Origin: Lentisphaerota bacterium
GTDB lineage: Bacteria; Verrucomicrobiota; Lentisphaeria; Victivallales; GWF2-50-93
Direction of reading: 5' to 3'
NCBI GenBank assembly: GCA_025360875.1
Contig: JANYBI010000767.1
Span: forward strand, 1 to 33,824
DNA length: 33,824 nt
Position numbers and translations under genes: made by a program
Shown: positions 3,093 through 31,192 of the stretch, in pieces
How positions within the stretch are numbered: the first letter of the stretch is position 1
Layout of the letters: each line of letters opens with the position of its first letter
Notes under the pieces: generated by a model
Database searches by the model: none
What the model saw: the letters and a program-made list of their open reading frames with translations, nothing else
Told to the model about the DNA's origin: nothing

Positions 3093-3253
3093 AGTTGCCT
3101 TACATTTGCTTTCCCAACTTCCTTCCTGTTGACATGTGCGATGTCAAAAACGGTGCTGATAATCCTTCTTTGCTTATCAGCCATATTTTTTCTATCTTTA
3201 CGCATGGAATGCGTTGAATAACATAGCCTATGGTTTCAACCATAGGTAATGGA

Positions 3254-3286
3254 TTAAAAAATATATCCACCCTGAAGGGGTGGGAT
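3254..3286 (-). terminator. Rho-independent terminator candidate downstream of the 3368..6526 gene
   Basis: Minus-strand reading: CCACCC-cttca-GGGTGG (3267..3283, extendable with one bulge to 3265..3286), followed directly by ATATATTTTTT. It lies ~80 nt after the stop at 3368. Confidence 0.55.
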
Positions 3287-3367
3287 AAATTTCTTCCGTC
3301 CCTGCAGGGCGAACCACCTTTTATACTAAACCTGTGTCTGAAGCCACAGTTTATATTACTCACTCCC

Positions 3368-6300
3368 TCACGGTTTCCATCTGAAGAAATTGTTTTTGCC
3401 GCCCCAGCCGCTGTTCTCGGTGAAGATCAGGTATTCGCCGTTCTTGCATTTGAAGGCGCGAATCCCCATGGCGGCGTCCTCCCAGGCTGACTGTCCGATT
3501 ACTTCAGGTCCCATTGAAAGGATTTCCACAAGCTTGCCGGTATTGAGATCGAAGACGTGTATCTCCCCATGGATATAGGCCATGAAGAGATAATCTCCTG
3601 CGACCTGTATTCCCATGTATCCGCCGTACTGGTAGGGATTGATCTCGTACATGAAATAGTCGGGATCGGTCCAGGGTGAGAACGCCTTGACCTTCCATTT
3701 CGGGATGCGATTGCCCTTGCTCCAATTGTCGTAGCGGCCCATGAAGTATTGCGCAGGAGACGTGTCGCCTTCGCCTTTGCGCGGCACGGCCGGATAGAAG
3801 GCGACCATGATGTCCCTGTCAGCATCGTAGTCCATCCTGCATGACATGCCCCAGGCGTTGGTCTTGTCGCCCTCTTCAGGAAACCGTACATCCTCATATC
3901 CATCGCCCTTTACTCCACTATATAAAGGAACACCCTTGTCGTTCATCCCTTTGAATGTGAAATGGCGCATGAAAGAGCCGTCGGTGGCGGGATTACCGGC
4001 CCAGATGTCGCCTTTGGAGTCGATACACAATGCGGTGACCCAGCCGATGCCGCGTTCCATTTTTACTATCTCCTCAGGCTGCTGTTTGCCGTCGCCGTTG
4101 GCATCGGTCCAGAATGTGTTTCCATTCTCGCGCGTGCCTCCGCAGGGAACCGCGATTTCGCCTTCATACCGATAAATATTGATCTCTCCGACAGTTCCCT
4201 GTCCGCTGGTGAACATTACAAGTTTCCTGTCATCTCCGAGACGCCGGACGATGGACTGCGAGCCGCCGGCGCGGGCAGGTTCCCCGTAGTTGCGGAGATC
4301 CCAGTTGTACCCGACGTACTTCTGTTCCTTGCCGGGTTCCTTCCGGGAAAGATCGAGTTTCAGATGGTTGTACGTGCCATAGATATCGGCGCCGTCGCTG
4401 TCAGGATCGACATCATATGTATTGCAGAACATCAGGCTGTTGAGCATCCAGCCCATCTTTCCGTCCGGTGCGAACATGCGCAGGTCGGATCCCTGGAAAC
4501 CGCCCCCGACGTAGAGGTTGCCTTTTGCGTCGACGCCCACGCCAGCGATACCGGCAAAACGTGCAAAGCCGCCGGACGCCGGATCGTTGACCAGCCCCGG
4601 ATTTTTCCCGCTGTAGATGCCGCCTTTCTCACCGAAAGTTCTGGCAAGAACCGGTTTCGAATCGAGCTTGTCATAGAAACGCACATTCAAGTCCGGACCA
4701 TTTTCCGCGACGAGAAGCTGATCCTTGGCGGCGTCATATCCCAGGGCGCGCGGATTGACCGCATCGGTGATTTCGCGGCCTTTAAACTTGCCGTCGATCC
4801 CATAGCATTTTACCGCCGGCTTATATTTCGCAGTGGTGGCGGCCGGACCAGGATAATCATTTCCACGCTGTATGATCCACAGGTCGCCGCGCTTGTCGAA
4901 AATCATCGGGCCGGGACGTTCAAACGGGAAATTCCTGCTGACCAGTTCGGCGGATTCCCCCTTGAAATCGCCTACCGCGGGACCGCCGCAGTTGATGGCG
5001 AAAAGCCTTTTCCCTTTCTGATCCAGGACTTCGAGACCGCAGATGCCGGGTCCGCCGTAGGATCCGGTGTTGACAATGACATTGCCCTTGTCGTCCGCCT
5101 TGCAGCCGGGGAAATCCTTGACGAGCGGTTTCAGAACTCCGCCGGCGAGTTCAGCCACGTTGACCGTGACGCCGTTGACATCCCTGACCCTGTTCCGGGG
5201 ATCGCCTTTTGCGGGACGTTCGACATATTCTGCGAAATGGCAGCGGACTGTGTATTCGGAACCTGCGGTGAATCCGGGAAGAGTGTAACGGAACCCTTCG
5301 CCGACGCGCTGGGTCTGGTAGACAATTTCCGGTGCGAACTTCGCATCTTTCCCGGGCACTGCGACAGGCGTCGGAGCGGTTGCAACACCGTCATTGGCCG
5401 CCAAAGGCACTTCGAATGTTTTAACGGGTTCCGTGGACACCACGCGGACAATGTTCTCGCGGGAATCGGCCACGAAAAGCTCACGTCCATTCGACGCCAT
5501 GCCGCTGATCACGCACATGTTTGATTTCTTGTCGAGCATACCGACCGAGAGGGTCACGGGCCGCGGCGCGAAATCAGGTTTTGCGGGATCAAGCTCGGTA
5601 ATGCGGTCGACAGTCGCCACGTAGATATGCCTGTCATCGCCTGTGATGCCGCCATCGGCAGTCTGCGGCGTACCGATCGGAAGCGGCCTCAGCACCTTGC
5701 CGTCGCGATATGAAGTGCAGGGAGTGCCCGCCTCATCCCAGTAGGAACTGGTATAGCAGGTGCCGTCAGGCGCCACCCACATTGCCGAAAGACTGTTCGC
5801 CACGTGGCCTTCATCCGGAGGGCAGCCGAAACTGTTGCCGACCCAGCTGGTCTTGTAGCGCATGTTTGGAGCGCCGATGGAGATATTGTCAAAAACCGCC
5901 GTAGCTACCTTGCCCGGATCTCCGCTGTTGACAAAAAATCCGATTTCAAGAGCGCCTTCAGAAGCAAATCCTCCGCCGCTCACATTGCTGATCATCACCC
6001 AGAGGCGGCCATCAGGAGATTTGTAAACTGCGAAGTTCTTTCCCTGCCTGACAAATCGCAACCAGATCGGCGCATCCCGTTTTGTACCTATCCCGCCGCC
6101 GGACTGCCCGGACGTTGCCGGCTCCTTTGCGCTCCAACTCAAACTGTTCTGGCCTTCTTTTGTGTCCTTGACGCAGAAGCTGACCTGCGCAGTTGCGGGT
6201 TTCGCAGATTCGCCAGCCTCCCGGACCATGATGCCGGCACGGGCCTGGGGCATTTCGGAAATTGACGCGATCCGGACCACTATCTCAAAATCCCCGCCCG

Positions 6301-6532: not shown

Positions 6533-8761
6533 TCACCTTGTTGGTTTGAAGTTCAGAAATTCCTGGGCCAGCACCGAAAGCGCGGCGGTCGGATCAGTGG
6601 TGACAGCCGCAGCGTCGAACGGCGCCTGCAGGACCCAGTCCCAGTCGTCGCGCTGGTAGTCGATCTCGTCGAGCCATGCGCGGAAGACGTTGAAGGAATA
6701 TGTGAACACGTAAACTTCGCCCTTGCCGATCTTCCGTTTGTAGAGAAGCGGCGACCACGGGCTGACCTTCTGCTGCTGGATGAAATATTTTTTCAGCTCT
6801 TCCGGATCGCTGCCCTTGTACGGCGATGGCGCGACAGCTTCCGCGAGAATCTGGGCGTCCGACGGCAGTTTCACCCATTTGAAGACCAGTTCCTTTTCAC
6901 GGCGGCCTGGCATGTAACGGCCACGGCGCATGTTCCAGTACGGCAGGAAATCGTCGCGCAACTGCCAGCGCAGGCTGACAGTCCACGGATTCCAATGCTG
7001 GTGATATGTGGATTCGACCTCAAGCGCGCCAGCCAGCTTGTTCCAGGCGGACTGGTCCATCGTTGCGCCGCGCGGATCGTACATCTTGCCATCCTCGCCG
7101 AAACTCAGGAGAACACGTCCACCCTGTTTTGCGTACGCGAGCAATGTCGCCGGCAGTTCGGGGAAGTCGCGCTGGTACTCGTCGGCGGAGACGATAACCA
7201 CCTTGAAAGGTGTCAGTTCCTCGAGGGCGATCGGACCGCGTCCCTGGAACCAGCTGTGCTTGACTTCCGGCTGGACACCGAGCCGGGCGCAGGCCGAAGC
7301 GATGCAGGCGTTGGTCATGTTGGCATCGATCTGTTCGAGGCCAAGCCGGTGTCCGGTAGGCACAAGAAGCAGGACTTCGTCAGACACGCGCGGCGTCGGA
7401 ACTTTTGCCGAAAGATAGGTGCGCATCCGGCGCGCCACGGGACGGTATTTATGCTGCATGTCGATCACGCCCATCTGCTCGCCTTCACGATGGAAATATT
7501 CAGGTTCGGGACGTGACGAGGAATCGTCGTCCGACCAGCACCACCAGCCGATGCCGTCGGCGCCGGCTTCCATGTAGACGCGCTGCAGGCGTTCGAAGAG
7601 GATGCGCTGGTCCTTCTCCTCGCGCGCCCAGCGGAGGAAGGCTGTCATGACCGAGCCGTGGCACGGGATGAGCGCCGTTTCCGGCGCGGCAGCCTTGAGA
7701 TAGCGGCAGCGTTCCCAGGCTTCAGTACAGGTGGAAAGGGAATCTATCTGGTCCTTGCCGGTGGTCGGTTCGACAAATCCCTGGCGCTGCCAGTTCGGGG
7801 CGACGTTCGAGCCATAGGACATGTTGAACCCGTACATCTCGATCCACACCGCATCGACGTTCATCAGACCTGGAATATAATTCTCCTGCGGCCCGCTGCA
7901 CCACTCGCATCCCTCATGGACGCTCATCGTCTTGATTTTAGGCGCGATCTTCCTGATCTCACCGTAGAAACGGTTATGGGTCCGGACCATGGTTTCGCTC
8001 TGGAACGCCAGGAAATCGAAACTGCGGGAATCGGCGCGCGTGAACTGTCCGAGCACTTCAGTGGGCAACGCGACCTCGCCCCACTTCTTCGGTTTTTCAG
8101 GCAGGTACGGGTTTGCCTTCAGGAAAGCCTTGAAATCGTCCTTGTACTTTTTCCGCAGCCATTCCTGCCAGAAGGGTTTGACCGGGAGAAGTTCCGCGGC
8201 TTCCGGTTCACCGGGACGGAATCCTGCGTATGCGGTCCAGAGACGTCCGCCGGACCGTCCCATGATCAGCGGTACTGCCGTATCGTCGGCGAAACGCCGT
8301 GCGAATTCGCCAAACGCCTTGACCTGCGCATCGAACAGGTAATCGCTGAAAGCATGCTGGTTCAGAGTCATCCCTTTCGGCGAAGGGTTTGCCTTGCCAA
8401 GGACATGCCGTACGGCTTCGCTGCTGTCATCACCATCAAGATTGGGAAACGGAATCAGGTAGATATCCTGTGAACGCGCTATCTCCACCATCTTCGCAAC
8501 GTTCTTCCACTGCGCCTCGACCGGCTTGCCATTTTTGAAGAAGGGCTTGAGGTTGATGAAAGGGACAGCCCAGGTCAGCCCGACCTTTTTCATCAGTTCA
8601 AAATCGTTTGCCAGATCCTTCTCATTGGCTTTCCAATATTCCTCGGCAAACCAGTCGCCGCCGCAGGTCCCGGGCGTACGTCCGAAATAAACCGGACCCG
8701 TTGGCAAAATCTTTTTCCCGCCGCGAAAGAATGATCCGTTCCTGATTTCCAGTGGTAGCAT
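6533..8761 (-). CDS. Cytoplasmic glycoside-hydrolase-like protein: N-terminal (beta/alpha)8-like domain plus a GH42-trimerisation/GATase1-like domain. Paralog A of 23715..25958. Family unassigned.
   Basis: 742-aa ORF with GGAGGG 6 nt upstream of the ATG and no signal peptide. The N-terminus YFGRTPGTCGGDWFAEEYWKANEKDLANDFELMKKVGL resembles the start of clan GH-A barrels (GH42/GH35 style). The middle/C-terminal stretch FKVVIVSADEYQRDFPELPATLLAYAKQGGRVLLSF resembles the GATase1-like beta-galactosidase trimerisation domain. It shares blocks with 23715..25958: YYGRFPGACGPDWW, IRKVAP, ADGW.YWNW.DD, RIGKGWVYV..W.NNVFR. I could not find a canonical NEP acid/base motif. Confidence 0.6.
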   Translation of the reverse strand: MLPLEIRNGSFFRGGKKILPTGPVYFGRTPGTCGGDWFAEEYWKANEKDLANDFELMKKVGLTWAVPFINLKPFFKNGKPVEAQWKNVAKMVEIARSQDIYLIPFPNLDGDDSSEAVRHVLGKANPSPKGMTLNQHAFSDYLFDAQVKAFGEFARRFADDTAVPLIMGRSGGRLWTAYAGFRPGEPEAAELLPVKPFWQEWLRKKYKDDFKAFLKANPYLPEKPKKWGEVALPTEVLGQFTRADSRSFDFLAFQSETMVRTHNRFYGEIRKIAPKIKTMSVHEGCEWCSGPQENYIPGLMNVDAVWIEMYGFNMSYGSNVAPNWQRQGFVEPTTGKDQIDSLSTCTEAWERCRYLKAAAPETALIPCHGSVMTAFLRWAREEKDQRILFERLQRVYMEAGADGIGWWCWSDDDSSSRPEPEYFHREGEQMGVIDMQHKYRPVARRMRTYLSAKVPTPRVSDEVLLLVPTGHRLGLEQIDANMTNACIASACARLGVQPEVKHSWFQGRGPIALEELTPFKVVIVSADEYQRDFPELPATLLAYAKQGGRVLLSFGEDGKMYDPRGATMDQSAWNKLAGALEVESTYHQHWNPWTVSLRWQLRDDFLPYWNMRRGRYMPGRREKELVFKWVKLPSDAQILAEAVAPSPYKGSDPEELKKYFIQQQKVSPWSPLLYKRKIGKGEVYVFTYSFNVFRAWLDEIDYQRDDWDWVLQAPFDAAAVTTDPTAALSVLAQEFLNFKPTR

Positions 8762-22068: not shown

Positions 22069-22227
22069 GGAGCTGATTTCAAAATTGCCAAAACGGTTGT
22101 TGCGGCAATACACTTCGTTGGAGTTCACAACTTTAGTGTGTCTTGGCATTTAATAGTTTACACACGCTAAAGCTGTGAACTCCAACTTTAGAAATCAGCT
22201 CAAAAGAGGCAATTTTGAAATTGCCTC
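22069..22227. repeat. Nested palindromic element: an 11-bp outer inverted repeat, a 25-bp inner inverted repeat (GTTGGAGT..CTTTAG family) and flanking AAATTGCC/GGCAATTT hairpins
   Basis: Outer arms: gagctgatttc (22070..22080) and gaaatcagctc (22191..22201), a perfect match. Inner arms: gttggagttcacaactttagtgtgt (22117..22141) versus 22162..22186, with 2 mismatches in 25. Left hairpin: attgcc-14 nt-ggcaat (22084..22110). Right hairpin: gaggcaattt-tg-aaattgcctc (22206..22227), a perfect 10-bp stem. The right part overlaps the last ~11 codons and the stop of the SGNH gene. Confidence 0.75.
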
Positions 22228-22875
22228 AATGGAAACAATAGCATCAAACACGGCAGTCGCCCAGACTTCGTGCCCTTTGTCGTTCGGATGGCAGTCCTTC
22301 TCGCCGCCGTGGAACTCGGCCCAGCGAGCGCCGCCGTCCGTGGCCTTCAGAATATTCCCGAGGATGTCAACGCACTGGACGTCGCGCGCATCCGCAGCTT
22401 TGCGAATTTCGCAACGTGTCTCGTCAAGATGCATGAACCCGCTGCATTTCGGATTTTCACCTGTCGGCAGGACAACCATCACGTCGGCCTTGTGTATCGC
22501 CCTGATCGCATCTATCATCTGCCCTACCGCAAATCCTGTCACTTCCGGCGGAAGAAGATGAAACGCGCAGTCGTTCGTTCCGAATTCAATGATCACAAGA
22601 TCGGGCTTGAACTGACCAAGCCAGTCCATCCTGCCAAGACCTTCGTAGGCGTTCTGTCCGCCAATTCCAAAGTTTGAAACGGAGAATTTGCATAAAGGAT
22701 ATTTTGCGCGCAGCATTCCACCGAGACGCTGTCCCCAGTTTTTTTCCGCCGACGAAGCGCCGCCAAACCAGTTAGGAGTCCTGCCGACCTCGCTGATGGA
22801 GTCGCCGTACATGACGATCTTCACCTCTTTCCTGGAGGCCAGGCATTTGCCGACTTTGACAAGGCTTCTTTTCAT
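22195..22875 (-). CDS. SGNH/GDSL-family hydrolase (probable carbohydrate acetyl-esterase)
   Basis: 226-aa ORF with AAGGAAGAGG upstream. All four SGNH blocks are present: VMYGDSISE (block I, Ser), GIGGQNAYEG (block II), IEFGTNDC (block III), DCHPNDKGHEV (block V, D-x-x-H). No signal peptide. Confidence 0.85.
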   Translation of the reverse strand: MKRSLVKVGKCLASRKEVKIVMYGDSISEVGRTPNWFGGASSAEKNWGQRLGGMLRAKYPLCKFSVSNFGIGGQNAYEGLGRMDWLGQFKPDLVIIEFGTNDCAFHLLPPEVTGFAVGQMIDAIRAIHKADVMVVLPTGENPKCSGFMHLDETRCEIRKAADARDVQCVDILGNILKATDGGARWAEFHGGEKDCHPNDKGHEVWATAVFDAIVSIEAISKLPLLS

Positions 22876-22887
22876 TTTACCTCTTCC

Positions 22888-23703
22888 TTATTTTTGAGCC
22901 AGGCTATCCTTGAGCAGATCCTTCATGTGGCAGTTGATTTCCCACAGGTTGGACAGAGGCTGCCGGGTGTATGGCAATGTGGGCATATATTCAGGCGGTC
23001 CGAACTCAGGACAGATCGTCAGGACTTTGCGCCCCTCGTCCCGCTGATGCTCCACGATCTTCCGCCACCAGCGCATATGCGCTTCAAGCGCCTGCTTCCA
23101 TTCCGGCGCCCTGGGATCATTCACCTGCGGCCCTTCCTCATAGCCGACACGGGCGTGTATGTGGCAGCTATGCAAGATCGCCCGTTCGACGGACTCAGCC
23201 TGATCCTGCAGCAGCGATTCATGCACGCAGCACCAGTGGGAAAAATCGGCGGTGAGCCTGATCTCCGGCATCGCCTCGATCAGGGCCATCGTCGCCACAG
23301 TGGAAAAGGTCGCCCGTCCCCGGTGGATTTCGTGCATGACCTGGAATCCGCATTTTTCCTCGAGTTCACGGGCCGCATCTATGAGGAGCATGTTCTCGGC
23401 TGTCGTATAGTAGTCCTTGCCGGTCTGGGAATTGACGAAGAGCGGGTTGAGTTCGACGCCCCTGCGGTACTGCTCTTCAAAGCTCCGGGCATGCTCCCCG
23501 GGCGAACTGCCGAAGGTCCATTGCTGGACGACCAGATCCAGGCCAAGGTCGTCCAGGATGGAGCGCAGTTCCGTGCGCCGCCTCTTGTCCTCCGGAGCAC
23601 CCATTTCCACTCCGTCGAAACCGCCCTCCTTGATCATCCTGAGATTGGCTTCGAGGGTCGGCTGCTCCATCCCCCACATCCCGCGGATATATTTTATTTT
23701 CAT
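22888..23703 (-). CDS. Xylose-isomerase-like TIM-barrel protein (sugar phosphate isomerase/epimerase superfamily)
   Basis: I moved the start to the ATG at 23703 (MKIKYIRGMWGME...). It has a perfect GAAGGAG 7 nt upstream and does not overlap the upstream gene, whereas the ORF-track start at 23742 overlaps it by 28 nt. Motifs: GFDGVEMG, HEIHRGR, ADFSHWCCVHE, HIHARVG, ICPEFGPPEY. These are metal-ligand-type His/Asp/Glu residues typical of this fold. Confidence 0.75.
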   Translation of the reverse strand: MKIKYIRGMWGMEQPTLEANLRMIKEGGFDGVEMGAPEDKRRRTELRSILDDLGLDLVVQQWTFGSSPGEHARSFEEQYRRGVELNPLFVNSQTGKDYYTTAENMLLIDAARELEEKCGFQVMHEIHRGRATFSTVATMALIEAMPEIRLTADFSHWCCVHESLLQDQAESVERAILHSCHIHARVGYEEGPQVNDPRAPEWKQALEAHMRWWRKIVEHQRDEGRKVLTICPEFGPPEYMPTLPYTRQPLSNLWEINCHMKDLLKDSLAQK

Positions 23704-23714
23704 CGCCGGCTCCT

Positions 23715-25958
23715 TCACATCTGCTTCCAGAAATATCCCCATGTGTTACGCAGCCAGATTGACGCGCCTTTTGTCAAGTCTACGTCGCGCGCGCCGCTGG
23801 TGGCAAGAGGGATGTCCAGCATCCAGTCAAATTCCCAGCCGCCATAATCCTGGCGTGTCTCGCAGTCGCGGAAGACATTGTTGGTCCAGGTGTTCACATA
23901 AACCCATCCTTTCCCTATCCGGTGGCGGTACAGGAACGGACGCGAGCCTGCGGGGAATTTCCCGACTGCGATCACTTCCGCGCCCTTGACCAGGGCCGGG
24001 ACCGGAGTGAAGGTGTCGTCATCAGTTGAACGGAATCCGAGAAGGCTCAGTTTTTCAGGATACGGGGCGAGATGGCGGAACTGCGGGCAGATGCCCCATT
24101 GCAGGCGGGGGAAGCATTGGACATCCATGTTCGCCTCCTGCGAAGCCGGAGTCGGGTACGGCCAGTTGGTACAGGGTATCTTCGCGTCCGGCCAGTCTTC
24201 CACGCCTTTCGGATCTACGCCGCTCAATCTGGCAAGCGATGCGTTGGAGTATGCCACGCCATGCTCGTCCTTGAAGGAGTCATATCGGTCAAGCGGGAAA
24301 TAGAGGACGCCTCCCTTTTCGACATATGAGAGCAGTTTGTCCGGCATGTCGCGGAAATCGCGTTCGTACATGTTGTCGGCTATCGCCACAAACTTGTACG
24401 AGTCCAGCGTCTCCTGCGAAATATGGATGTCGTTCTGCGAACTCCAGTAGTAGTCCGGCTCGACGCCGATCCGCGCAAAGGCGCCGTTCACTGCGCATGC
24501 CGTCGGCAGCGCCATGCGTCGGAACAGGCTGTACATGCGCGGCGAAGATGACAGCACCATCACGTCGCTTTTCTTCACCGGACGGTTTTCGTCCGCCCTC
24601 CGGGCCGCCTCGCGCGAATACCGGGACACAAGCGATATCACAGGCTTTGGAAATCCGTTGAAATCATTCATGCCAAGGGATTCTCCCTGGAAGAAATACT
24701 TGGTGGGATTCTCGAAACGCTCTTTCTGGTGCGCGCACCATGAGGCATTGTCGTCGCGCCAGTTCCAGTAATGCCAGCCGTCGGCATCGGCCGCAAGACA
24801 GGCGGCGTTCACGCGGTCGATGATTGCGGCCTGCTGTTCGAGCGTCTCAGTCCCGTACGCAGGGGAATCCTGCCAGCCGCCATGGCAGATTACTACTGGC
24901 TGCTGGACAGATTTCTTGAGGAACCTCGCCATGAGATAGGCCGCGTTGTAGACTACAGGAACCTGGTGCGAGAGGCGTGCGTGGTGCACTTCGCGGGTAT
25001 GCACCCATTCCTCGAACGGCTGAACATAGCTTGGCCGGGTCATCTCAAAGAAATAATATTCCATCCAGACCGCCTGCAGGAGTTTTGTCTCGGGGGAGAA
25101 ACCGTCGAGCATTGCCCAGGTGTTCGTGTTGCCCTCGAACGGAGTCCAGATGAACTGCGATGGCGCCACTTTCCTTATTGCCGCATCGAAACGCGCCTGC
25201 GCCTCCCCGATGCTTTTCTTCTGCCAGAGGATGTAGTCGTAGCTGAGCGGATTGCGCAGGGAACCGTTCCACTTGCTTTCCTGCGGAAGCATCACTTCAT
25301 TGAAATCGCGCGGACGGTTTTCAAGCGCGTCAGGTCCACCCATCGCATCAATGAGTCCTTTGAATGTTCCGTAGCGCTGTTTCAGCCAGGAATGCCATTC
25401 GTCCTTCAGGTTGAACGGTATTGAGACGTTGTCGAATCCCTTGTGAAAACGGTCGATGCGGTCGGTATACGCCATCACCGTCGGCTCATTCTTGTACCGT
25501 TCGGCGAACGGTTTCATCTGCATGACATATGCTTCATGCAGCGCAGGATTGAAGCTAGGAAGGAAACGGTTGTCGAACTCCCATTCGCGTCCGGAGATCT
25601 GCTTGTAGGCCGCTGGCGTGTCGATGAAAGGTCCGATGAAAATGCTGATGCGTACGCCAGCCTTCTTCGCGGACTCCACGATCGTGTCCATGCGCTCCAT
25701 GCTCTGCTGAATGACACGGCCGTTTTCGAAGAACATGTCGTTGTGGAAGAACATCGCCGCATGGTTGATGCCCACGTCCGACATGCGCCCGAAATCGCGG
25801 TCGAGTTCCTTGGCGTTCAATTCCCAGCGGCCATCGCGCCACCAGTCGGGACCGCATGCACCGGGAAAACGCCCGTAGTAGATCACCGAGTTGCAATACC
25901 AGCGTTTACCTTCGAGCTCAAACTGCCCTTTCGAGTTTATGCTGACAAAATTTTTCAT
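23715..25958 (-). CDS. Cytoplasmic glycoside-hydrolase-like TIM-barrel + GATase1-like protein. Paralog B of 6533..8761. Family unassigned.
   Basis: 747-aa ORF with AAAGGAAAAG upstream. Blocks: YYGRFPGACGPDWWRDGRWELNAKELDRDFGRMSDVGINH..., AVWMEYYFFE, ADGWHYWNWRDDN, YKFVAIADNMYERDFRDMPDKLLSYVEKGGVLYFP, RIGKGWVYVNTWTNNVFR. By-eye identity to 6533..8761 is about 25-30%. Confidence 0.6.
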   Translation of the reverse strand: MKNFVSINSKGQFELEGKRWYCNSVIYYGRFPGACGPDWWRDGRWELNAKELDRDFGRMSDVGINHAAMFFHNDMFFENGRVIQQSMERMDTIVESAKKAGVRISIFIGPFIDTPAAYKQISGREWEFDNRFLPSFNPALHEAYVMQMKPFAERYKNEPTVMAYTDRIDRFHKGFDNVSIPFNLKDEWHSWLKQRYGTFKGLIDAMGGPDALENRPRDFNEVMLPQESKWNGSLRNPLSYDYILWQKKSIGEAQARFDAAIRKVAPSQFIWTPFEGNTNTWAMLDGFSPETKLLQAVWMEYYFFEMTRPSYVQPFEEWVHTREVHHARLSHQVPVVYNAAYLMARFLKKSVQQPVVICHGGWQDSPAYGTETLEQQAAIIDRVNAACLAADADGWHYWNWRDDNASWCAHQKERFENPTKYFFQGESLGMNDFNGFPKPVISLVSRYSREAARRADENRPVKKSDVMVLSSSPRMYSLFRRMALPTACAVNGAFARIGVEPDYYWSSQNDIHISQETLDSYKFVAIADNMYERDFRDMPDKLLSYVEKGGVLYFPLDRYDSFKDEHGVAYSNASLARLSGVDPKGVEDWPDAKIPCTNWPYPTPASQEANMDVQCFPRLQWGICPQFRHLAPYPEKLSLLGFRSTDDDTFTPVPALVKGAEVIAVGKFPAGSRPFLYRHRIGKGWVYVNTWTNNVFRDCETRQDYGGWEFDWMLDIPLATSGARDVDLTKGASIWLRNTWGYFWKQM

Positions 25959-26049
25959 CCAACTTTTCCTTTATTTAAGTTCTTAGTATTATAGAACGTA
26001 GATATTTTTAGACAGGATTACAGGATTTTCATGATTTATTGAATTCAAT

Positions 26050-28053
26050 TCACGCCTCCAGATCCAGCCATTTCATTTCATCAGGGCTCAGCTTCACTTC
26101 GAGCGCGGCCAGGCAGCTCCTGATCTCGGCAGGCCGCTTGGGACCGATGAGCGGGAACGTCGGAAACGGCAGATTCAGAACCCAGGCAAGCGCGATGTTG
26201 ATCGGTTCCACGCCGCGTTTTTTCGCCAGTTCGTTGACGCGTTCCTTGCGCCGGAAATTCTCCTCGCCGTACCAGCAGCGGCACAGTTCCGGATCAGACT
26301 TGTTCTCCCTGGAGGCGCGGTCCGTGAAGAATCCGCGCGCCTGGCTCGACCATGACAACATCGGCGTCTGCGTCTTTTCAAACCATTTGCGAGATTCGCA
26401 ATCAGACGAGGATACCAGATGCATGTCCCAGAGCGGCGCCAGCACGCGCGCCAGGCTGAGCTGGTTGCTGACCACGCTGAAACTTGCCAGCCCTTTGCTG
26501 CGGGCATATTCATCGAACGCCTTGAGACGCGGAATTGAAAAATTCGAAAGACCGAAGATTTTCATGCGTCCGGCTTTGAGATTTTCATTGAGCACATCAG
26601 CCCATTCGCCGATCGGCACCTGCTCATTGTCGCGGTGGATCATGTAGATGTCCACGCAGTCCATCTGCAGGCGTTCAAGGCCGTGGACAAGTTCGTAGGT
26701 GAGCCCTTCGGGATTTCCTTTTGCGAAGTTCGCACCTTTCTCGATGACGACCACCTGATCACGGACTCCTCTTTGGCGTACCCACGAGCCAAGATTGATT
26801 TCCGGTGCCCCGTTGGGGTTTCCATAGGCGTACGAAGTGTCAAAAGCGTTTCCGCCACGTGTGAAAAATTCGTCCAGCATGATCGAGGTGTCAGGCATGG
26901 TGTTGTTGGAATCGCATCCGAACACGAGACGTGAAACGGGCTTTTCCAGACCTTTGATTTTGCCGTATTTCATCGGGGCGTCCGCAGATTTCCGGAGAGG
27001 GCGGTGCGTGATCGTCTGTAATGCGTTCTCCGGTTTCTCAAGATCATAGACAAGTCCGATCTCCCTGCGCCAGCGGTCCAGGGCGCGGATGTTTCCAAGC
27101 GAGTCGTCCCAGCTCATTTCCGGCGCCTGGCGCTTTTCGATTGAGGCCGCAACAGCATCAGCCTCGACTGCGTAGAGATCCTTGTCGTGACGCACAATTA
27201 TTTCCTGTGAATCTGCGGCATAGTTCTTGCGCAGGATCAGCTTGCTCTCGGAATATCCGTATCCGGCGACCCATGGCGTAGGCACGAAAAGGCTTGCTTC
27301 GGAACCGTAGATCCAGACGACCTCCTCCTGCGCGACCCGCAGTCCGGTTGAAAGTTCAGCACATATCCCGCCGGGGAAACGCAATGACGCGACAGCGCAA
27401 TCGTCCGTGCCGGTCACGCCGAGATGGCCGCAGCCTTTCAGTTCGGCAGGTTCGTCGAACGGTTTGCCGGTGGCGGCACCTGCGATCAGGCGCGCCATCG
27501 ACAGCGGATAGCAGCCGACGTCCAATATTCCCCCTCCTCCGAGAGCCTGCGAAAAGAATCTGCTGTCGGCTGGCGCATTCGTGTTGTAGCTGAATGAGGC
27601 GTGGATCATCCGGATCTCCCCAAGAACACCGCTACGGACGATTTCCACAATCTTCCGGGTCTGCGGCGTGCACCGGTACATAAAAGCTTCCATCAGGAAC
27701 ACGTCATGTTCGCGGGCGGCGTCGATCATCGCCAGCGCTTCCGGCGTGTTCATGCCGATAGGTTTTTCCACCAGGATATGCTTGCCCGCCTCCGCGGCCT
27801 TTATTGTCCATTCCGCATGCATCGGATGCGGTGTCGAGACATAGACGGCATCCACGCCGGAGTCGGCGAGCAGTTCCTCATAGCTGGCATATGCACGCGG
27901 GATTTCGAACTCTTTCGCGAAGGATTCAGCCGTGCTCCTGGAACGGCTGCCTACAGCGACGAGTTCTCCAGTATCGGAGGCCTTGACGCCTTTGGCGAAA
28001 CGTTTGGCGATAAGTCCGGTTCCCAATATTCCCCAGCGAAGCCTGTCATTCAT
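26050..28053 (-). CDS. Two-domain oxidoreductase: N-terminal Gfo/Idh/MocA NAD(P)-dependent dehydrogenase fused to a C-terminal aldo/keto reductase
   Basis: 667-aa ORF with AAGGAG 7 nt upstream. N-terminal domain: LRWGILGTGLIAKRFAKG (Rossmann GxGxxA), VYVSTPHPMHAEW, HILVEKP (EKP motif). C-terminal domain from about residue 355: GGNAFDTSYAYG...INLG (Asp/Tyr of the AKR tetrad), VVVIEKG (Lys), VDIYMIHRDN (His), IFGLSNFS, PLIGPKRPAEI. Confidence 0.85.
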   Translation of the reverse strand: MNDRLRWGILGTGLIAKRFAKGVKASDTGELVAVGSRSRSTAESFAKEFEIPRAYASYEELLADSGVDAVYVSTPHPMHAEWTIKAAEAGKHILVEKPIGMNTPEALAMIDAAREHDVFLMEAFMYRCTPQTRKIVEIVRSGVLGEIRMIHASFSYNTNAPADSRFFSQALGGGGILDVGCYPLSMARLIAGAATGKPFDEPAELKGCGHLGVTGTDDCAVASLRFPGGICAELSTGLRVAQEEVVWIYGSEASLFVPTPWVAGYGYSESKLILRKNYAADSQEIIVRHDKDLYAVEADAVAASIEKRQAPEMSWDDSLGNIRALDRWRREIGLVYDLEKPENALQTITHRPLRKSADAPMKYGKIKGLEKPVSRLVFGCDSNNTMPDTSIMLDEFFTRGGNAFDTSYAYGNPNGAPEINLGSWVRQRGVRDQVVVIEKGANFAKGNPEGLTYELVHGLERLQMDCVDIYMIHRDNEQVPIGEWADVLNENLKAGRMKIFGLSNFSIPRLKAFDEYARSKGLASFSVVSNQLSLARVLAPLWDMHLVSSSDCESRKWFEKTQTPMLSWSSQARGFFTDRASRENKSDPELCRCWYGEENFRRKERVNELAKKRGVEPINIALAWVLNLPFPTFPLIGPKRPAEIRSCLAALEVKLSPDEMKWLDLEA

Positions 28054-28067
28054 AACACGACTCCTTT

Positions 28068-30113
28068 TTATTTTATTGTCGTAGGCAGTTCTACCCCGCT
28101 TATCGCATAGGTATGCAGAGCTTCAAGGACGTATGAATCCGATTTCGGCAACGCCCTGCCGGCAGTGACATCGTAGACTTTCCCGGGCAGAGCCACACTG
28201 CGTTTCTTGAAATTGAAGACTGTCGCCTTCTTCCCTTTCTCATCGTGCCACAGGACGGAAAGCCCGTCCTCCTGCATATAACGGCGCTTCATGTCCGACA
28301 TGACCGCGTGATAATCGGCAAGAGCCTGCCTGAAGTCATCGCCCCAGACCGTATCGATGCGTTTGCCGTCAATTTCAAGAGGTATTCCGAGACACGCCTT
28401 GTTGGCGAGCTGGTAATAGAGGCCGTCGGCACCTTTCGGGTTGAGATCCTTCAATGCCTGTGTTCCGGGAACAGTGGTGTAGTCGTTGCCCATGCCGACC
28501 TTGTAGCAGGCGAATATGGTTTCCATGTTGTAGCTGGAAGGATGCCCGTGCATCGGCTGTGTCCAGGGGCCGAAGGACTCGATCGTCCAGGTCACGCCCT
28601 TGTCCTGCGCCTTCTTGAACAGGTCCAGTAGGCCGCGCCACATGGTCCGCGGCGCCATCTCATTATAGTTTATCGCCATGAAGGCCAGATTGTAGAAGCT
28701 GTCGAAGAAGAAATGCGTGCCGGTCTCCTTATGGATCTTAACATGCGAGTCGAGGAAATATTTCTTCGCCTCAGGACAGCTGAAGTCGAGCACGCTCATG
28801 CAGCCCATGTAGGCGCCGCCGTACTTCTGGCGCGAATCCTCGAGCAGCACATACCAGCACTCCTTGCCCAGCGACCGTTCCGACCTGTTGAGCGGACTGG
28901 AGAGCGCCTGGTCGTTGTTCGTCCAGCTCAGCACCTCTATGCCGTGCTTCGCGCACTCGTCGGCAAAGGCCTTGACCTTTTTCGTGCCTCCGAGCTTTTC
29001 TGACAGCTCGTACTCATGTCCGCAGCACATGTTCCAGTTGAACACTCCGGGCATCGGCGCGGACTCGGTAAATGCGGACTTCTTGAGATTGTCCACGAAG
29101 AGGCGTTTGACCCCGAGCTTGACGGCCGCAGGCAGCAGATCCTTGTAGTAGCTGTCAACCATGAAATTGCACCAGAAATTCTGGGCTATCGTAGGTACTA
29201 TGGGGAAATCCCTCAGTCCGAACTCGGCGCGCGCCCTGGTATCGACTTCGTCTGAAACCCAGGTCCACAGGTTCTTCTGGTCTGTTTCCGTTTTCGGCGC
29301 CGAGTTGATGAGTATCTTCTTTGCGGAAGTCGCATATTTTTTCGTCTGGTCGAAAATGTGCTTGTCAAAGACCTTCAGTTCCGGTTTTCCCGCATCGCGC
29401 ACAACAACGGAACGTATCAGCTCGAGCTTCTCAAAGACGCCGATGAGAGTCCTGCCGCCCTTGAACTGGTAGTCGAATGAACCGTGTCCGGCCCAGCGCG
29501 GAAGATTGTGGGTCATCACCGGATTCTGGTTGCCGCCCTCGATGAGGAAGAACAGTATTCCTTCGGTGGTCCAGGAGTTTTTCCGGTCGAACTTGATGGC
29601 GGGAGAGGAACATGAGGACTGCGAATAAGCCGTGGCGCCGCTTATGTCGCCGTCGAGTTCCCAGCTCGCCATGTCCATCAACCAGAAGGCCGGCACATCA
29701 GCGCTGGCGTATTCCCAGTGGTATGAGAATCCTTCGAAGCCGGTCCCGTTGAAAGTGTCCTTGGCCTGTTTTAGGACGAGATCTAGCTTCGCGGTGCCGG
29801 CGACAGGATCCTTGTCCCAGTCGCCTACCTCATGGATCGGATCGAAGCTGTGGTCGCGCATGAGCTTGACCGGAAGCTTTTTGAAGTTGGCTTCAAGGCA
29901 GATGCGGATTTCGTTTTTTCCCTTGACGATCTTCTTCAGATCCAGCCTGGAAAGCTCAAGTCCCGTGAAAGTCTGCATGAAGCATCTGAGCGGAAGACGT
30001 CCCGAGCGTACCAATGTCTTCCCGATCCAGATCCGTCCAAGTCCTACGAATTCGCCTTTTTCAGAAACGACTTCAAACCTGCAATCCTTGAGATCAACTA
30101 TCTGCTTGCTCAT
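28068..30113 (-). CDS. Uncharacterised 681-aa protein with a glycoside-hydrolase-like (beta/alpha)8 C-terminal half and a novel N-terminal beta-rich half
   Basis: I moved the start from 30509 to the ATG at 30113 (MSKQIVDLKDCRFEVV...). The 132-aa extension overlaps the regulator gene out of frame and is Gly/Pro/Arg-rich low-complexity sequence. The 30113 start has AAAGGAAG upstream and lies 14 nt after the regulator stop. GH-like blocks: VLDFSCPEAKKYFLDSHVKIHKETGTHFFFDSFYN (a strand ending in Asp, as in GH13/GH31-type barrels) and VTWTIESFGPW (candidate Glu). Confidence 0.65.
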   Translation of the reverse strand: MSKQIVDLKDCRFEVVSEKGEFVGLGRIWIGKTLVRSGRLPLRCFMQTFTGLELSRLDLKKIVKGKNEIRICLEANFKKLPVKLMRDHSFDPIHEVGDWDKDPVAGTAKLDLVLKQAKDTFNGTGFEGFSYHWEYASADVPAFWLMDMASWELDGDISGATAYSQSSCSSPAIKFDRKNSWTTEGILFFLIEGGNQNPVMTHNLPRWAGHGSFDYQFKGGRTLIGVFEKLELIRSVVVRDAGKPELKVFDKHIFDQTKKYATSAKKILINSAPKTETDQKNLWTWVSDEVDTRARAEFGLRDFPIVPTIAQNFWCNFMVDSYYKDLLPAAVKLGVKRLFVDNLKKSAFTESAPMPGVFNWNMCCGHEYELSEKLGGTKKVKAFADECAKHGIEVLSWTNNDQALSSPLNRSERSLGKECWYVLLEDSRQKYGGAYMGCMSVLDFSCPEAKKYFLDSHVKIHKETGTHFFFDSFYNLAFMAINYNEMAPRTMWRGLLDLFKKAQDKGVTWTIESFGPWTQPMHGHPSSYNMETIFACYKVGMGNDYTTVPGTQALKDLNPKGADGLYYQLANKACLGIPLEIDGKRIDTVWGDDFRQALADYHAVMSDMKRRYMQEDGLSVLWHDEKGKKATVFNFKKRSVALPGKVYDVTAGRALPKSDSYVLEALHTYAISGVELPTTIK

Positions 30114-30127
30114 TTTCTTCTTCCTTT

Positions 30128-31192
30128 CTATATGTTTATTGCGGAAACCGCCAATGGCAGTTCGGATTCGAAAACTGGTCTTATATCCGTATCCTTCTGG
30201 AATTTCTTCTTCTCGCGCTGCGCCACCAGGCATCTGATGGAACGTGCAAGGACATCCTGGCAGTCCATTCCAAGACGTGTCACCGGCACACTGCTCGGGG
30301 AACGGTCCGGGAAATTGCAGTGCGCGACAACCTCCAGGTTCTGCGGAACTCTCACTCCCGAATGGAGGAGACCTTCGGTTGCCGCCTCGACCAGATGGTC
30401 GTCGCGTATGATCAGGGCATCCGGGCGGTTTTTTTCCGAGATCCCCATGAGAAGCATCGCAGCCTGATGCGCCGACCATGGATAGTCCGGTGAACATGCC
30501 TGGACCCACATCCCCCTGCCCACGCCCTTCTTCTCAAGATAGGCTGTGTCCTCTTCGACCGCCCATCTGTTGATATATGCGCCGATCAGGGCGATCTTCC
30601 TGCGCCCTTTTTTCATCAGATGCTCCACGGCCCTCTCGATGAAATTACGGCAATTCAAATTCATATGGCAGAGATCCGGATAGCATTCCGGATCGCATAT
30701 GGCGACTCTCGGCAGATCCTTCTGCTCCAGGACTGGTGTCCTTTCAAGATGGTATGGGGGCGCGATGAAGATCAGTCCAGCCACCCTGTGCGCCTCCACA
30801 TCCGACATGAGACGCCTGTAGCCTTCGGACTGGATGTGCCCGCCATCATAGCAATATGAGGAAAATTTCATCGGACCTCCGCCTGCGATCTTCTGGGCGG
30901 CCTGCTGGAACGCCATGGCGAAACGGGAGCCTGAGAACGGTATGCCCGAGACTAGGCCATAGTGGTTCAGGTGCGGCGGATTTTCCGCAACGACAGTCCC
31001 TCCGGACCGGTTCGTGCAGACGAATCCGTCGCGGATCAGGCTGTTCATGGCAAGCTGGACGGTCTGCCTGCTAGCATTGAACCGCAGCTGGAGATCATCG
31101 CGCGTGGGAAGCTTGGAACCCGGGGGATATTTCCCGCCGACTATTTCCATCCTGACCTGTGACAGGATATTGCTCTGCTTGGCGTTGATCAT
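30128..31192 (-). CDS. Transcriptional regulator: GntR-type winged HTH fused to a LacI/PBP1-type sugar-binding domain
   Basis: 354-aa ORF. N-terminus KLPTRDDLQLRFNASRQTVQLAMNSLIRDGFVCTNRSGGTVVAE is a GntR HTH. The C-terminal blocks are those of a periplasmic-binding-protein-like I fold: GLIFIAPPY, RKIALIGAY, PDALIIRDDHLVEAATEGLLHSGVRVPQNLEVVAHCNFP. It is the first gene of the co-directional cluster. Confidence 0.8.
   Translation of the reverse strand: MINAKQSNILSQVRMEIVGGKYPPGSKLPTRDDLQLRFNASRQTVQLAMNSLIRDGFVCTNRSGGTVVAENPPHLNHYGLVSGIPFSGSRFAMAFQQAAQKIAGGGPMKFSSYCYDGGHIQSEGYRRLMSDVEAHRVAGLIFIAPPYHLERTPVLEQKDLPRVAICDPECYPDLCHMNLNCRNFIERAVEHLMKKGRRKIALIGAYINRWAVEEDTAYLEKKGVGRGMWVQACSPDYPWSAHQAAMLLMGISEKNRPDALIIRDDHLVEAATEGLLHSGVRVPQNLEVVAHCNFPDRSPSSVPVTRLGMDCQDVLARSIRCLVAQREKKKFQKDTDIRPVFESELPLAVSAINI

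Follow-up and report, generated by a model that had tools for sequence, protein, structure and literature searches.

Does a Gfo/Idh/MocA–aldo/keto reductase (AKR) fusion, encoded close to a GH42-like protein and a xylose-isomerase-like TIM barrel, mark an oxidative route of glycoside cleavage? The question is raised by a contig of a Lentisphaerota bacterium (the window, 33,824 nucleotides in full), for which an earlier note had proposed that the fusion and the TIM barrel are the signature of 3-keto glycoside cleavage. Our analysis covered the domain make-up of the fusion, its conserved catalytic residues, its distribution and its gene neighbourhoods. The family is widespread and is usually accompanied by sugar importers, not by barrel enzymes. 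The fusion is therefore more likely to convert a free sugar while recycling its cofactor than to take part in oxidative glycoside cleavage.

The three genes lie on the minus strand where the earlier note had placed them, apart from the start of the TIM-barrel gene. Homologues of the TIM barrel begin at the second methionine, so the gene spans 22888–23703 (271 aa) and not 22888–23742. The GH42-like gene does lie between the fusion and TIM-barrel genes, as had been described, but the two are separated by this one gene and are not two genes apart. All three belong to a row of six tightly packed minus-strand genes. The row is headed by a gene (30128–31192) for a GntR-type helix-turn-helix domain with a periplasmic-binding-protein-like sugar sensor (Pfam GntR and Peripla_BP_3), which is likely the regulator; homologues of it adjoin genes of the GH42-like family in genome G262 and at loci L133, L134 and L139. 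There follow the genes for a 681-aa cytoplasmic protein (28068–30113), the fusion (26050–28053), the GH42-like protein (23715–25958) and the TIM barrel, with that for an SGNH/GDSL esterase (22195–22875; PF13472, 90.7 bits) as the last. A homologue of the esterase gene also directly follows the GH42-like homologue at L134. The intergenic gaps are 11–91 nt and a terminator scan of the row gave no signal exceeding background, which together suggest that the six genes are co-transcribed.

For the 681-aa protein, the start of which was shortened to fit a 682-aa homologue in G262, Pfam and NCBIfam scans gave no match. Its ESM look-alike clusters contain DUF6259, DUF5696 and GH31, a language-model likeness that serves as a lead only. 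Homologues occur at L132, at L134 (two copies) and in G262, and on this homology the protein is a conserved partner of the GH42-like gene.

The fusion is a single reading frame of 667 aa. Its Gfo/Idh/MocA half (residues 1–340; 27034–28053) is joined through a linker (residues 341–359; 26977–27033), which lies between the Pfam domain limits and varies across the family alignment, to the AKR half (residues 360–667 with the stop codon; 26050–26976). The translation was checked and has no stop codon or frameshift between the halves. Pfam recognized GFO_IDH_MocA (PF01408) at residues 5–123 with 96 bits, C-terminal Gfo domains at 133–326 (PF22725, 70 bits; PF02894, 30 bits) and Aldo_ket_red (PF00248) at 384–664 with 140 bits, covering profile positions 16–287 of 291. 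The covalent fusion described in the earlier note is thus borne out by one reading frame with matches for both halves. In an alignment of 17 diverse fusions (54–67% identity), the AKR tetrad D405/Y410/K439/H473, which had been noted as apparently intact, was invariant, as were the EKP motif E96-K97-P98 and D178/Y182 of the Gfo half; GxGxxA and S36-R37 were conserved. The N-terminal half has the Rossmann and C-terminal alpha/beta domains, the EKP lysine and the Asp-x3-Tyr pair of Gfo/Idh/MocA oxidoreductases, and the C-terminal half has the PF00248 barrel and Asp-Tyr-Lys-His tetrad of the AKR superfamily. Both halves are predicted to be catalytically intact.

The closest solved relatives of the Gfo half are DHDH (2o48, E 8.8e-38), KijD10 (3rbv, 3.7e-34) and AFR (2glx, 5.9e-27), all of them NADP(H) enzymes; glucose-fructose oxidoreductase (GFOR) and an aldose–aldose oxidoreductase were also matched. 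DHDH is the dimeric dihydrodiol dehydrogenase, which is also a D-xylose 1-dehydrogenase; KijD10 is a sugar 3-ketoreductase and AFR is 1,5-anhydro-D-fructose reductase. The Gfo half has the EKP lysine in common with these three, and its D178/Y182 pair fits the DHDH pattern. However, DHDH, KijD10 and AFR are single-domain proteins that lack an AKR, their identity to the Gfo half is only moderate, and no equivalog model was reached. From S36-R37, which come after strand 2, and from the cofactor of these relatives, we infer that the Gfo half is of the NADP(H) type. In the AKR half, K639 and R645 occupy the position of an IPKS-x4-R motif and can be read as a putative NADP feature.

The solved relatives of the AKR half include 7utf, perakine reductase, DepB, IolS and YghZ. 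It matched the full barrel of AKR families 11–14 (IolS 1pyf, YhdN 1pz1, YghZ 3n6q, perakine reductase 3uyi and DepB 8hwn; E 1e-12 to 2e-17) and keeps their tetrad, but none of these five is fused to a Gfo/Idh/MocA domain; their substrates are diverse and the similarity is too low for specificity to be transferred to the fusion. DepB carries out the reduction in an epimerisation that two enzymes achieve by oxidising and then reducing, and this is the logic that we propose for the fusion. GFOR and the Caulobacter aldose–aldose oxidoreductase are Gfo/Idh/MocA enzymes that couple the oxidation and reduction of sugars by way of NADP(H), so that no cofactor is consumed overall. In them a single active site, which binds NADP tightly, serves both half-reactions, whereas the reducing site of the fusion would be a separate AKR barrel. 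A literature search of incomplete coverage ('Gfo/Idh/MocA' is poorly searchable) found no characterised Gfo–AKR fusion or member of the family, in keeping with the earlier note, which had not recognized the fusion from any characterised pathway.

The Gfo–AKR architecture is not rare or unusual, being found in many phyla, on rhizobial plasmids and, split, in Bacillota. The best 120 database matches to the fusion were all fusions of ∼665 aa from many phyla, and ∼40 full-length clusters at 50% identity were present among the best 150 profile matches. The fusion is carried by 197 rhizobial plasmid records and is annotated only as 'aldo/keto reductase'. At nine loci, eight from Bacillota and one from a Chloroflexi MAG, Gfo and AKR are separate adjoining genes, in reversed order in the Chloroflexi case. 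In a quick tree, a fused Evansella sequence fell inside the split Bacillota clade (support 95) and a fused Geminisphaera sequence and a stand-alone Chthoniobacterales gene were sisters (support 99). These placements indicate that fusion or fission has recurred in the family. Where the AKR partner is present in a locus it is either fused to the Gfo domain or directly adjoining it, and was never seen elsewhere within the 10-kb flanks. The Gfo domain itself occurs alone in many genomes. The source genome has a second fusion paralogue, on a 2.1-kb contig without informative context.

The 129 neighbours at 24 loci included 13 ABC permeases, seven binding proteins, six ATPases, nine AraC regulators and three LacI regulators. 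On the three rhizobial plasmids examined (Rhizobium etli pC and p42b, and Sinorhizobium meliloti pSymA), the operon comprises, in this order, a regulator, a binding protein, permeases, an ATPase and the fusion, with the fusion as its only enzyme. Most genomes place the fusion in a sugar-importer operon that has no other enzyme. The Paenibacillus pair has alpha/beta-hydrolase esterases after it and, in one case, an aldose 1-epimerase. The earlier note had seen in the fusion a possible marker of a pathway; the neighbourhoods that we mapped show mainly importers and regulators, and no homologue of the TIM barrel of the window.

The reading of the fusion that we favour, at roughly 0.45, is a cofactor-neutral oxidise/reduce converter of a free small sugar, for which we infer the cofactor coupling, the order of steps and the substrate. 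An NADP(H)-type Gfo protein of the DHDH/AFR/KijD10 branch, fused to or encoded beside a catalytically complete AKR, would act in sequence with its partner, both working in the cytoplasm on a single small carbohydrate in its free form. Oxidation at a hydroxyl or at the anomeric carbon would fall to one half and reduction of a carbonyl to its partner, with the NADP(H) formed by either half consumed by the other. The net outcome would be epimerisation or interconversion of an aldose with a ketose or alditol. In the source genome, the fusion would have been recruited to the GntR-controlled row of six genes, where it would act on a sugar, perhaps of galacto configuration, that the glycosidase-like proteins set free. 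The suggestion in the earlier note that the fusion could oxidise and then re-reduce an intermediate in a redox-neutral way fits two apparently intact halves and a pair that is kept across phyla, whether fused or adjacent.

Several points weigh against this conversion of a free sugar. The literature search, of incomplete coverage, found no member of the family for which biochemistry or genetics had been reported, and the cofactor preferences are taken from motifs alone. There are close stand-alone Gfo orthologues (41–51% identity) that have no AKR gene within 10 kb; the Gfo step can thus proceed by itself, and a common substrate for the two halves is not required. Moreover, stand-alone Gfo dehydrogenases that are not orthologous to the fusion recur beside homologues of the GH42-like protein (L132, L134, L136, L137 and L138), leaving room for a dehydrogenase that acts with, not after, the glycosidase-like proteins.

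The freedom of the Gfo step bears on an unlikely alternative, in which the halves do not act in sequence on one molecule. In one form of it, the Gfo half would be an aldose 1-dehydrogenase that forms a lactone and a second sugar or an aldehyde would be reduced by the AKR half, a dismutation like that of GFOR or aldose–aldose oxidoreductase but with exchangeable NADP; in the other, the AKR would simply regenerate NADP+. It is consistent with DHDH as the best solved relative, with the matches to GFOR and aldose–aldose oxidoreductase and with the many solitary Gfo domains, and the Paenibacillus esterases that follow the pair could be lactonases, the single aldose 1-epimerase fitting the same scheme. 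Against it, the rhizobial operons have no lactonase, dehydratase or kinase for further use of a sugar acid, and an AKR that is so strictly adjoining or fused would seem to do more than balance the bulk cofactor pool.

In the reading of the earlier note, which we regard as quite improbable, the Gfo half would oxidise a glycoside at C3, the TIM barrel would eliminate the aglycone and the AKR half would re-reduce the keto-sugar, a cytoplasmic non-hydrolytic deglycosylation resembling the AL/BT2156-2160, LgdA/LgdB and DgpA/DgpBC systems. The tight row with its fusion, GH-like protein and TIM barrel argues for it. The barrel had been called xylose-isomerase-like, and this held: it has a weak Pfam match to AP_endonuc_2 (PF01261; 32.7 bits against a cut-off of 31.1), an AF2 model (pLDDT 92.3) with eight strand–helix units, and residues of the metal-binding type. 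E125, D153, H183 and E233 are invariant in the family and fit the E-D-H-E metal/catalytic pattern of ketose 3-epimerases; such a site could also bind a keto group, a point in favour of glycoside cleavage. Sequence and profile searches against solved structures gave nothing significant, and nor did NCBIfam; the family comprises >7,500 clusters named 'sugar phosphate isomerase/epimerase'. The model aligned over 230–245 residues, with Z about 20, to many xylose-isomerase-fold enzymes. The top matches were ketose 3-epimerases, UlaE and the Art22 isomerase (Foldseek 9e-10; VIA Z 20.0–20.4), although identity to D-tagatose/D-psicose 3-epimerase, UlaE and Art22 is just 12–15%; YcjR was matched with a Foldseek E of 1.9e-8. 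In favour of cleavage, the model aligned to the deglycosidase subunits DgpB-C and CarB-C (Z 19.9–20.2 by VIA-align), but these are tied with ketose 3-epimerases, Art22, UlaE and IolE (Z 18.5–20.4). Fold searches do not separate the two groups and assign the barrel to no functional subgroup.

The pairing itself is not conserved. At none of 24 loci with the fusion or the split pair did a homologue of the TIM barrel lie within 10 kb of it, PF01261 was absent from the 25 most frequent families among the 129 neighbours, and neither a Gfo nor an AKR gene was found within 9 kb of TIM-family genes at 17 loci. The genes around homologues of the barrel (33–53% identical) show no partner that is shared throughout and point to no pathway; those for Rieske, desaturase, NMT1 and AraC proteins each occur in a few loci, a heterogeneity, Rieske oxygenases included, that sets the family apart from ketose 3-epimerases, UlaE and Art22. 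At two Bacillota loci, another type of TIM barrel does lie beside another Gfo gene, 4–8 kb from the split pair, and the Gfo genes adjoining GH42-like homologues likewise favour cleavage. In contrast, the Gfo half scored far below the cut-offs of the equivalog models for levoglucosan dehydrogenase (LgdA, NF052479; 87 bits against 650), glycoside 3-dehydrogenase (BT_2158, NF058561; 43 against 750) and disaccharide 3-dehydrogenase (BT_2159, NF058563; 29 against 650), and is nearer to DHDH, AFR and KijD10 than to LgdA or DgpA. The window resembles the AL/BT2156-2160, LgdA–LgdB, DgpA–DgpBC, YcjS–YcjR and ThuAB systems in that one row combines a Gfo dehydrogenase with a metal enzyme of the xylose-isomerase fold, but this dehydrogenase–TIM pairing is not conserved at other loci. 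The AL/BT system also needs a DUF1080 hydratase, and its dehydrogenase and lyase are exported (Tat/Sec), the AL1-3 proteins being periplasmic (bioRxiv 10.1101/2024.03.25.586180). No ORF of the row matched DUF1080 (GH16-like), and the N-termini of the fusion, the GH42-like protein and the TIM barrel, read by eye, have no signal-like hydrophobic stretch, unlike AL1-3. The rhizobial fusions, as the sole enzymes of their operons, also speak against cleavage. The TIM barrel would instead be a separate metal-dependent enzyme of the keto-sugar isomerase/epimerase type, placed in the operon of the fusion only in this lineage. The presence of a Gfo gene close to a TIM barrel is not, on its own, grounds for calling a locus one of oxidative glycoside cleavage.

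The GH42-like protein (P0003, 747 aa) had no match in Pfam (PF02449 included) or NCBIfam scans. Its family profile reached GH42 structures (5xb7, E 6.6e-5), its AF2 model (pLDDT 85) matched the GH42 beta-galactosidase 4uoz over the whole length (Foldseek E 9e-23), and five family members have a precomputed PF02449 match; the 'GH42-like' label of the earlier note therefore holds at the level of the fold. The model has the complete three-domain architecture of the beta-galactosidases/alpha-L-arabinopyranosidases BlGal42A (4uoz) and BlArap42B (5xb7). E300 ('WMEYY') is invariant in the family, at what is presumably the GH42 nucleophile position. Unlike canonical GH42 enzymes, the protein has neither its own Pfam GH42 match nor the Asn-Glu pair: this canonical acid/base motif is not conserved and aligns to Arg-Phe or, without the gap, to Ile-Asp in 'RIDRF'. 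The family is small (about 60 clusters among 5.8 billion proteins) and occurs in two of 401 genomes of the phylum. The nearest relative carrying the gene, G262, has neither fusion nor TIM barrel at that locus, a further point against the cleavage signature.

A detoxifying or salvaging double reduction, in which both halves would reduce a dicarbonyl or anhydro-keto sugar such as 1,5-anhydro-D-fructose or a glycosulose from the upstream GH31-like protein, is very unlikely: AFR and KijD10 are keto-sugar reductases, GH31 includes alpha-glucan lyases producing anhydrofructose and the 681-aa protein has GH31/DUF6259-like features, but that assignment is a language-model look-alike alone, the fusion mostly occurs without this protein, and a net double reduction would leave it unexplained why these two halves, as opposed to any two reductases, stay together.

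A cofactor-recycling isomerisation or epimerisation of sugars, as in our preferred reading, could be one that needs neither metal nor nucleotide activation. In sugar-degrading bacteria, few 'predicted oxidoreductase' genes are as abundant as those for Gfo/Idh/MocA and AKR proteins, and most of these have no assigned substrate. Here the function is directly testable, given the fixed pairing, the position as sole enzyme of rhizobial importer operons and the adjoining galactose-type binding proteins. The rhizobia that carry these operons are culturable and genetically tractable, and a functional result would annotate thousands of genes together.

The substrate of the fusion may be galacto-configured. 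A narrower proposal, which we hold to be quite improbable, is that Gfo–AKR provides a bacterial cofactor-neutral oxidoreductive entry step for such sugars (for example D-galactose, L-arabinose or a short beta-galactoside). Using NADPH, the AKR half would turn the aldose into its alditol, which the Gfo half would then re-oxidise, with NADP+, to a ketose or epimer; the fungal route through aldose reductase and polyol dehydrogenase would be its unfused equivalent. If true, this entry step, beside GH42-type enzymes and galactose-type importers, would replace Leloir or De Ley-Doudoroff entry. The lead towards galacto-configured sugars, which belongs equally to our preferred reading, comes from the resemblance of the binding proteins to galactose and β-1,6-galactoside receptors, from a GH42 gene in Mesobacillus and from the GH42-like gene that comes after the fusion in the window; against it, GH42 was found at only one of 80 genome loci. 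The S. meliloti binding protein beside the fusion is closest to AcbH (3.9e-52), a beta-D-galactopyranose receptor (PMC8233162). For the Mesorhizobium-type binding protein, the nearest match was Bal6GBP (6H0H, 1.4e-29), which binds beta-1,6-galactoside (PMC8106489), but a resemblance between binding proteins at E 1e-29 does not settle the ligand. In Mesobacillus, a canonical GH42 gene lies directly before the split pair.

The 667-residue protein encoded at 26050–28053 (−) combines in a single reading frame a complete Gfo/Idh/MocA enzyme (residues 5–326) and a nearly complete aldo/keto reductase (AKR) barrel (residues 384–664), as assigned by Pfam. In an alignment of 17 fusions that are 54–67% identical, the Rossmann glycines, R37, E96-K97-P98, D178 and Y182 of the Gfo half were all invariant, and S36 was nearly so. 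The AKR tetrad (D405, Y410, K439 and H473) was also invariant, bearing out the intact D-Y-K-H set described in the earlier note, and the dehydrogenase site is intact as well. The closest solved relative of the N-terminal half was dimeric dihydrodiol dehydrogenase (E-value 8.8e-38), followed by the sugar 3-ketoreductase KijD10 (3.7e-34) and 1,5-anhydrofructose reductase (5.9e-27), all of them NADP(H) enzymes. These relatives, the Ser-Arg that follows strand 2 in the Gfo half and the AKR half's Lys...Arg cofactor motif together suggest that both halves use NADP(H). LgdA (6a3f; 1.4e-20) and DgpA (8.7e-19) ranked lower, with only the Rossmann part aligned. The protein also fell far under the NCBIfam equivalog models for levoglucosan dehydrogenase (87 of 650 bits), glycoside 3-dehydrogenase (43 of 750 bits) and disaccharide 3-dehydrogenase (29 of 650 bits).

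Every one of the best 120 matches in 5.8 billion proteins was a fusion of ∼665 residues, named only ‘aldo/keto reductase’ in the database and drawn from Planctomycetota, Omnitrophota, Chloroflexota, Armatimonadota and other phyla. When 1.84 billion representatives were searched with a profile, the best 150 matches contained ∼40 full-length clusters (50% identity), with stand-alone Gfo (∼340 residues) and stand-alone AKR (∼300–315 residues) proteins ranked below them. Species genomes with the fusion include Geminisphaera, Kribbella, Abditibacterium, Mesorhizobium, Rhizobium, Chelativorans, Evansella, SAR86 and more, and 197 rhizobial plasmid records carry it. The architecture is already catalogued, yet uncharacterised; being so common, and present in tractable rhizobia, it is worth testing. 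The source genome encodes a second, 54% identical paralogue (contig C174:839–2107), which the contig end cuts at residue 425 and which has a ∼580-nt non-coding stretch upstream. One 1316-residue protein of the representative library (P0341) aligned to the fusion profile over four separate segments and may be a double fusion in tandem; its best segment (residues 675–1008) corresponds to the Gfo half (profile positions 5–343).

Separate, adjacent genes encode the two halves in eight Bacillota genomes and in one Chloroflexi MAG, where their order is reversed. Of 80 loci, 26 contained an AKR of the fusion type, and in every one of them it was either joined to the Gfo domain or encoded immediately next to it, with no copy farther out in the flanks; no such AKR lay within 10 kb of stand-alone Gfo orthologues (41–51% identity). 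In a Gfo-domain tree from a quick maximum-likelihood search, the fused Evansella gene nested among the split genes of Bacillota (support 95), and the fused Geminisphaera gene formed a sister pair with a Chthoniobacterales gene that stands alone (support 99). With midpoint rooting, the starred branches of this tree require the state (fused, split or alone) to have changed at least three times. Since the same pair has repeatedly been fused or split, there is good comparative evidence that the Gfo and AKR halves work together.

We grouped by Pfam family the 129 neighbours lying within 3.3 kb of the fusion or of the split pair. The commonest were ABC permeases (13), AraC regulators (9) and family-1 binding proteins (7), followed by ABC ATPases (6) and LacI regulators (3); PF01261 did not rank among the 25 commonest. 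The operon on plasmids of Rhizobium etli (fusion orthologue RHE_RS22745 on p42b) and Sinorhizobium meliloti (pSymA) consists of a regulator (AraC or ROK), a binding protein, two permeases, an ATPase and the fusion as sole enzyme, and in S. meliloti the fusion start overlaps the ATPase stop. Downstream of the split pair in Paenibacillus come alpha/beta-hydrolase esterases and, in one case, an aldose 1-epimerase. This pattern of importers and regulators, with the fusion as the only enzyme, points to a substrate that would be a free, imported small carbohydrate. In 24 loci, no homologue of the window's xylose-isomerase-like TIM barrel, GH42-like P0003, 681-residue orphan, esterase, GH5-like or GH38-like proteins was found within 10 kb of the fusion or pair.

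The earlier note had read the fusion and TIM barrel as an oxidative (3-keto) glycoside-cleavage route, and neither family placement nor comparative context supports this. Its proposal of a redox-neutral pair that oxidises and then re-reduces an intermediate fares better: this is the best-supported mechanism, and it would most likely act on a free sugar rather than in glycoside cleavage.

Four partly independent pointers lead towards galactose. The S. meliloti binding protein beside the fusion most closely matched AcbH (3.9e-52), a beta-D-galactopyranose-specific receptor (Licht et al. 2011, cited in PMC8233162). A second, different kind of binding protein (Mesorhizobium/Rhizobium/Kribbella type) most closely matched Bal6GBP (PDB 6H0H; 1.4e-29), whose ligand is a beta-1,6-galactoside (PMC8106489). 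A tight row in Mesobacillus foraminis encodes a LacY-like symporter, a membrane protein, a canonical GH42 (PF02449, 408 bits), Gfo, AKR, a second AKR and an SDR epimerase. In the window, P0003 comes next after the fusion, and the beta-1,6-galactosidase BlGal42A is its closest match by fold. Both binding-protein likenesses are moderate, however, and GH42 occurred in only 1 of 80 genome loci; we put the probability of a galacto-configured substrate at about one in four.

The TIM barrel (22888–23703, −) has 271 residues, as its homologues begin at the second Met, and belongs to a large family (>7500 clusters) named ‘sugar phosphate isomerase/epimerase’. Searches of solved structures with its sequence and profile gave no match. 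The predicted model was confident (pLDDT 92.3), and Foldseek matched it to ketose 3-epimerases, UlaE, YcjR, IolE, AsbF and C-glycoside deglycosidases, all with E-values of 1e-9 to 1e-7. VIA-align gave ties at Z 18.5–20.4 between Art22, tagatose/ribulose/psicose epimerases, UlaE, CarB-C, DgpB-C and IolE. E125, D153, H183 and E233 are invariant, lie at strand ends and fit the E-D-H-E metal/catalytic pattern of ketose epimerases. Given these residues and fold matches, the protein is a genuine metal enzyme of the xylose-isomerase fold, able in principle to act beside a carbonyl group, but the matches do not place it in any one subgroup.

The family was present in 18 of the 401 phylum genomes searched, none of them from the window's own family or order. 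At 17 of its loci the neighbours were heterogeneous, with no Gfo, AKR or other window gene within 9 kb. The pairing of TIM barrel and fusion is therefore specific to the window's lineage. The best database match (74% identity) is labelled Spirochaetales, which, with the gene's patchy spread in the phylum and its absence from those searched genomes that belong to the window's own family or order, suggests lateral acquisition.

The observation that the fusion lies near a GH42-like protein and a TIM barrel was correct. The co-directional row comprises a GntR/PBP regulator (30128–31192, −), the orphan (28068–30113, −), the fusion, P0003 (747 residues; 23715–25958, −), the TIM barrel and an SGNH esterase (22195–22875, −), tightly packed with gaps of 14, 14, 91, 11 and 12 nt from regulator to esterase. 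Terminator-like sites were no commoner than in shuffled sequence (16 against an expected 18.5), so co-transcription of the six genes is likely. The source genome is a 4.58-Mb MAG (784 contigs, 78% complete) that encodes DUF1559/N-methyl prepilin proteins, which we associate with Planctomycetota.

The P0003 family is small (∼60 clusters in 5.8 billion proteins; 2 of 401 phylum genomes), and a 27% identical paralogue lies in the window at 6533–8761 (−). In place of the canonical GH42 Asn-Glu acid/base pair stands ‘RIDRF’, whereas a nucleophile-like Glu (E300, in ‘WMEYY’) shows no variation; this may be a new family in clan GH-A or a relative without hydrolytic activity. We compared P0003 loci from the nearest relative with a homologue (G262) and from metagenomes; AKR and TIM barrel were both absent from these. 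The recurrent partners were the GntR/PBP regulator, the orphan family, the SGNH esterase, an AGE-family protein and stand-alone Gfo dehydrogenases of different subfamilies. These dehydrogenase genes adjoin P0003 homologues (L132:8696–9745; L136:2919–4028), are divergent to one (L134:6–1121) or lie 5 kb away (L137:15931–17055 and L138:16897–18021, similar loci from one metagenome and not independent). The conserved core is thus regulator, orphan and GH42-like protein, often with the esterase and some dehydrogenase, a slot that the Gfo-AKR fusion fills in the window's genome. Because Gfo dehydrogenases recur at these loci, a modest opening remains for the idea of a dehydrogenase cooperating with glycosidase-like proteins.

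Gfo genes beside P0003 homologues exceed the expectation from ∼28 such genes per 4.6 Mb. Two loci from Bacillota encode another kind of xylose-isomerase-like TIM barrel adjoining a further Gfo/Idh/MocA gene 4–8 kb from the split pair (L064:1369–2334 and 2668–3777; L023:15853–17780), which is the classic TIM and Gfo pairing but with a dehydrogenase other than that of the split pair. In an Anaerolineae MAG, a 709-residue protein with DUF6421 and a GIFT/ABC-auxiliary-like domain is encoded two genes upstream of the fusion (L009:118–2244). The orphan, which had no Pfam match, was the most constant P0003 partner (in G262 and L132, and as a tandem pair in L134), and its language-model look-alikes carry DUF6259, DUF5696 or GH31.
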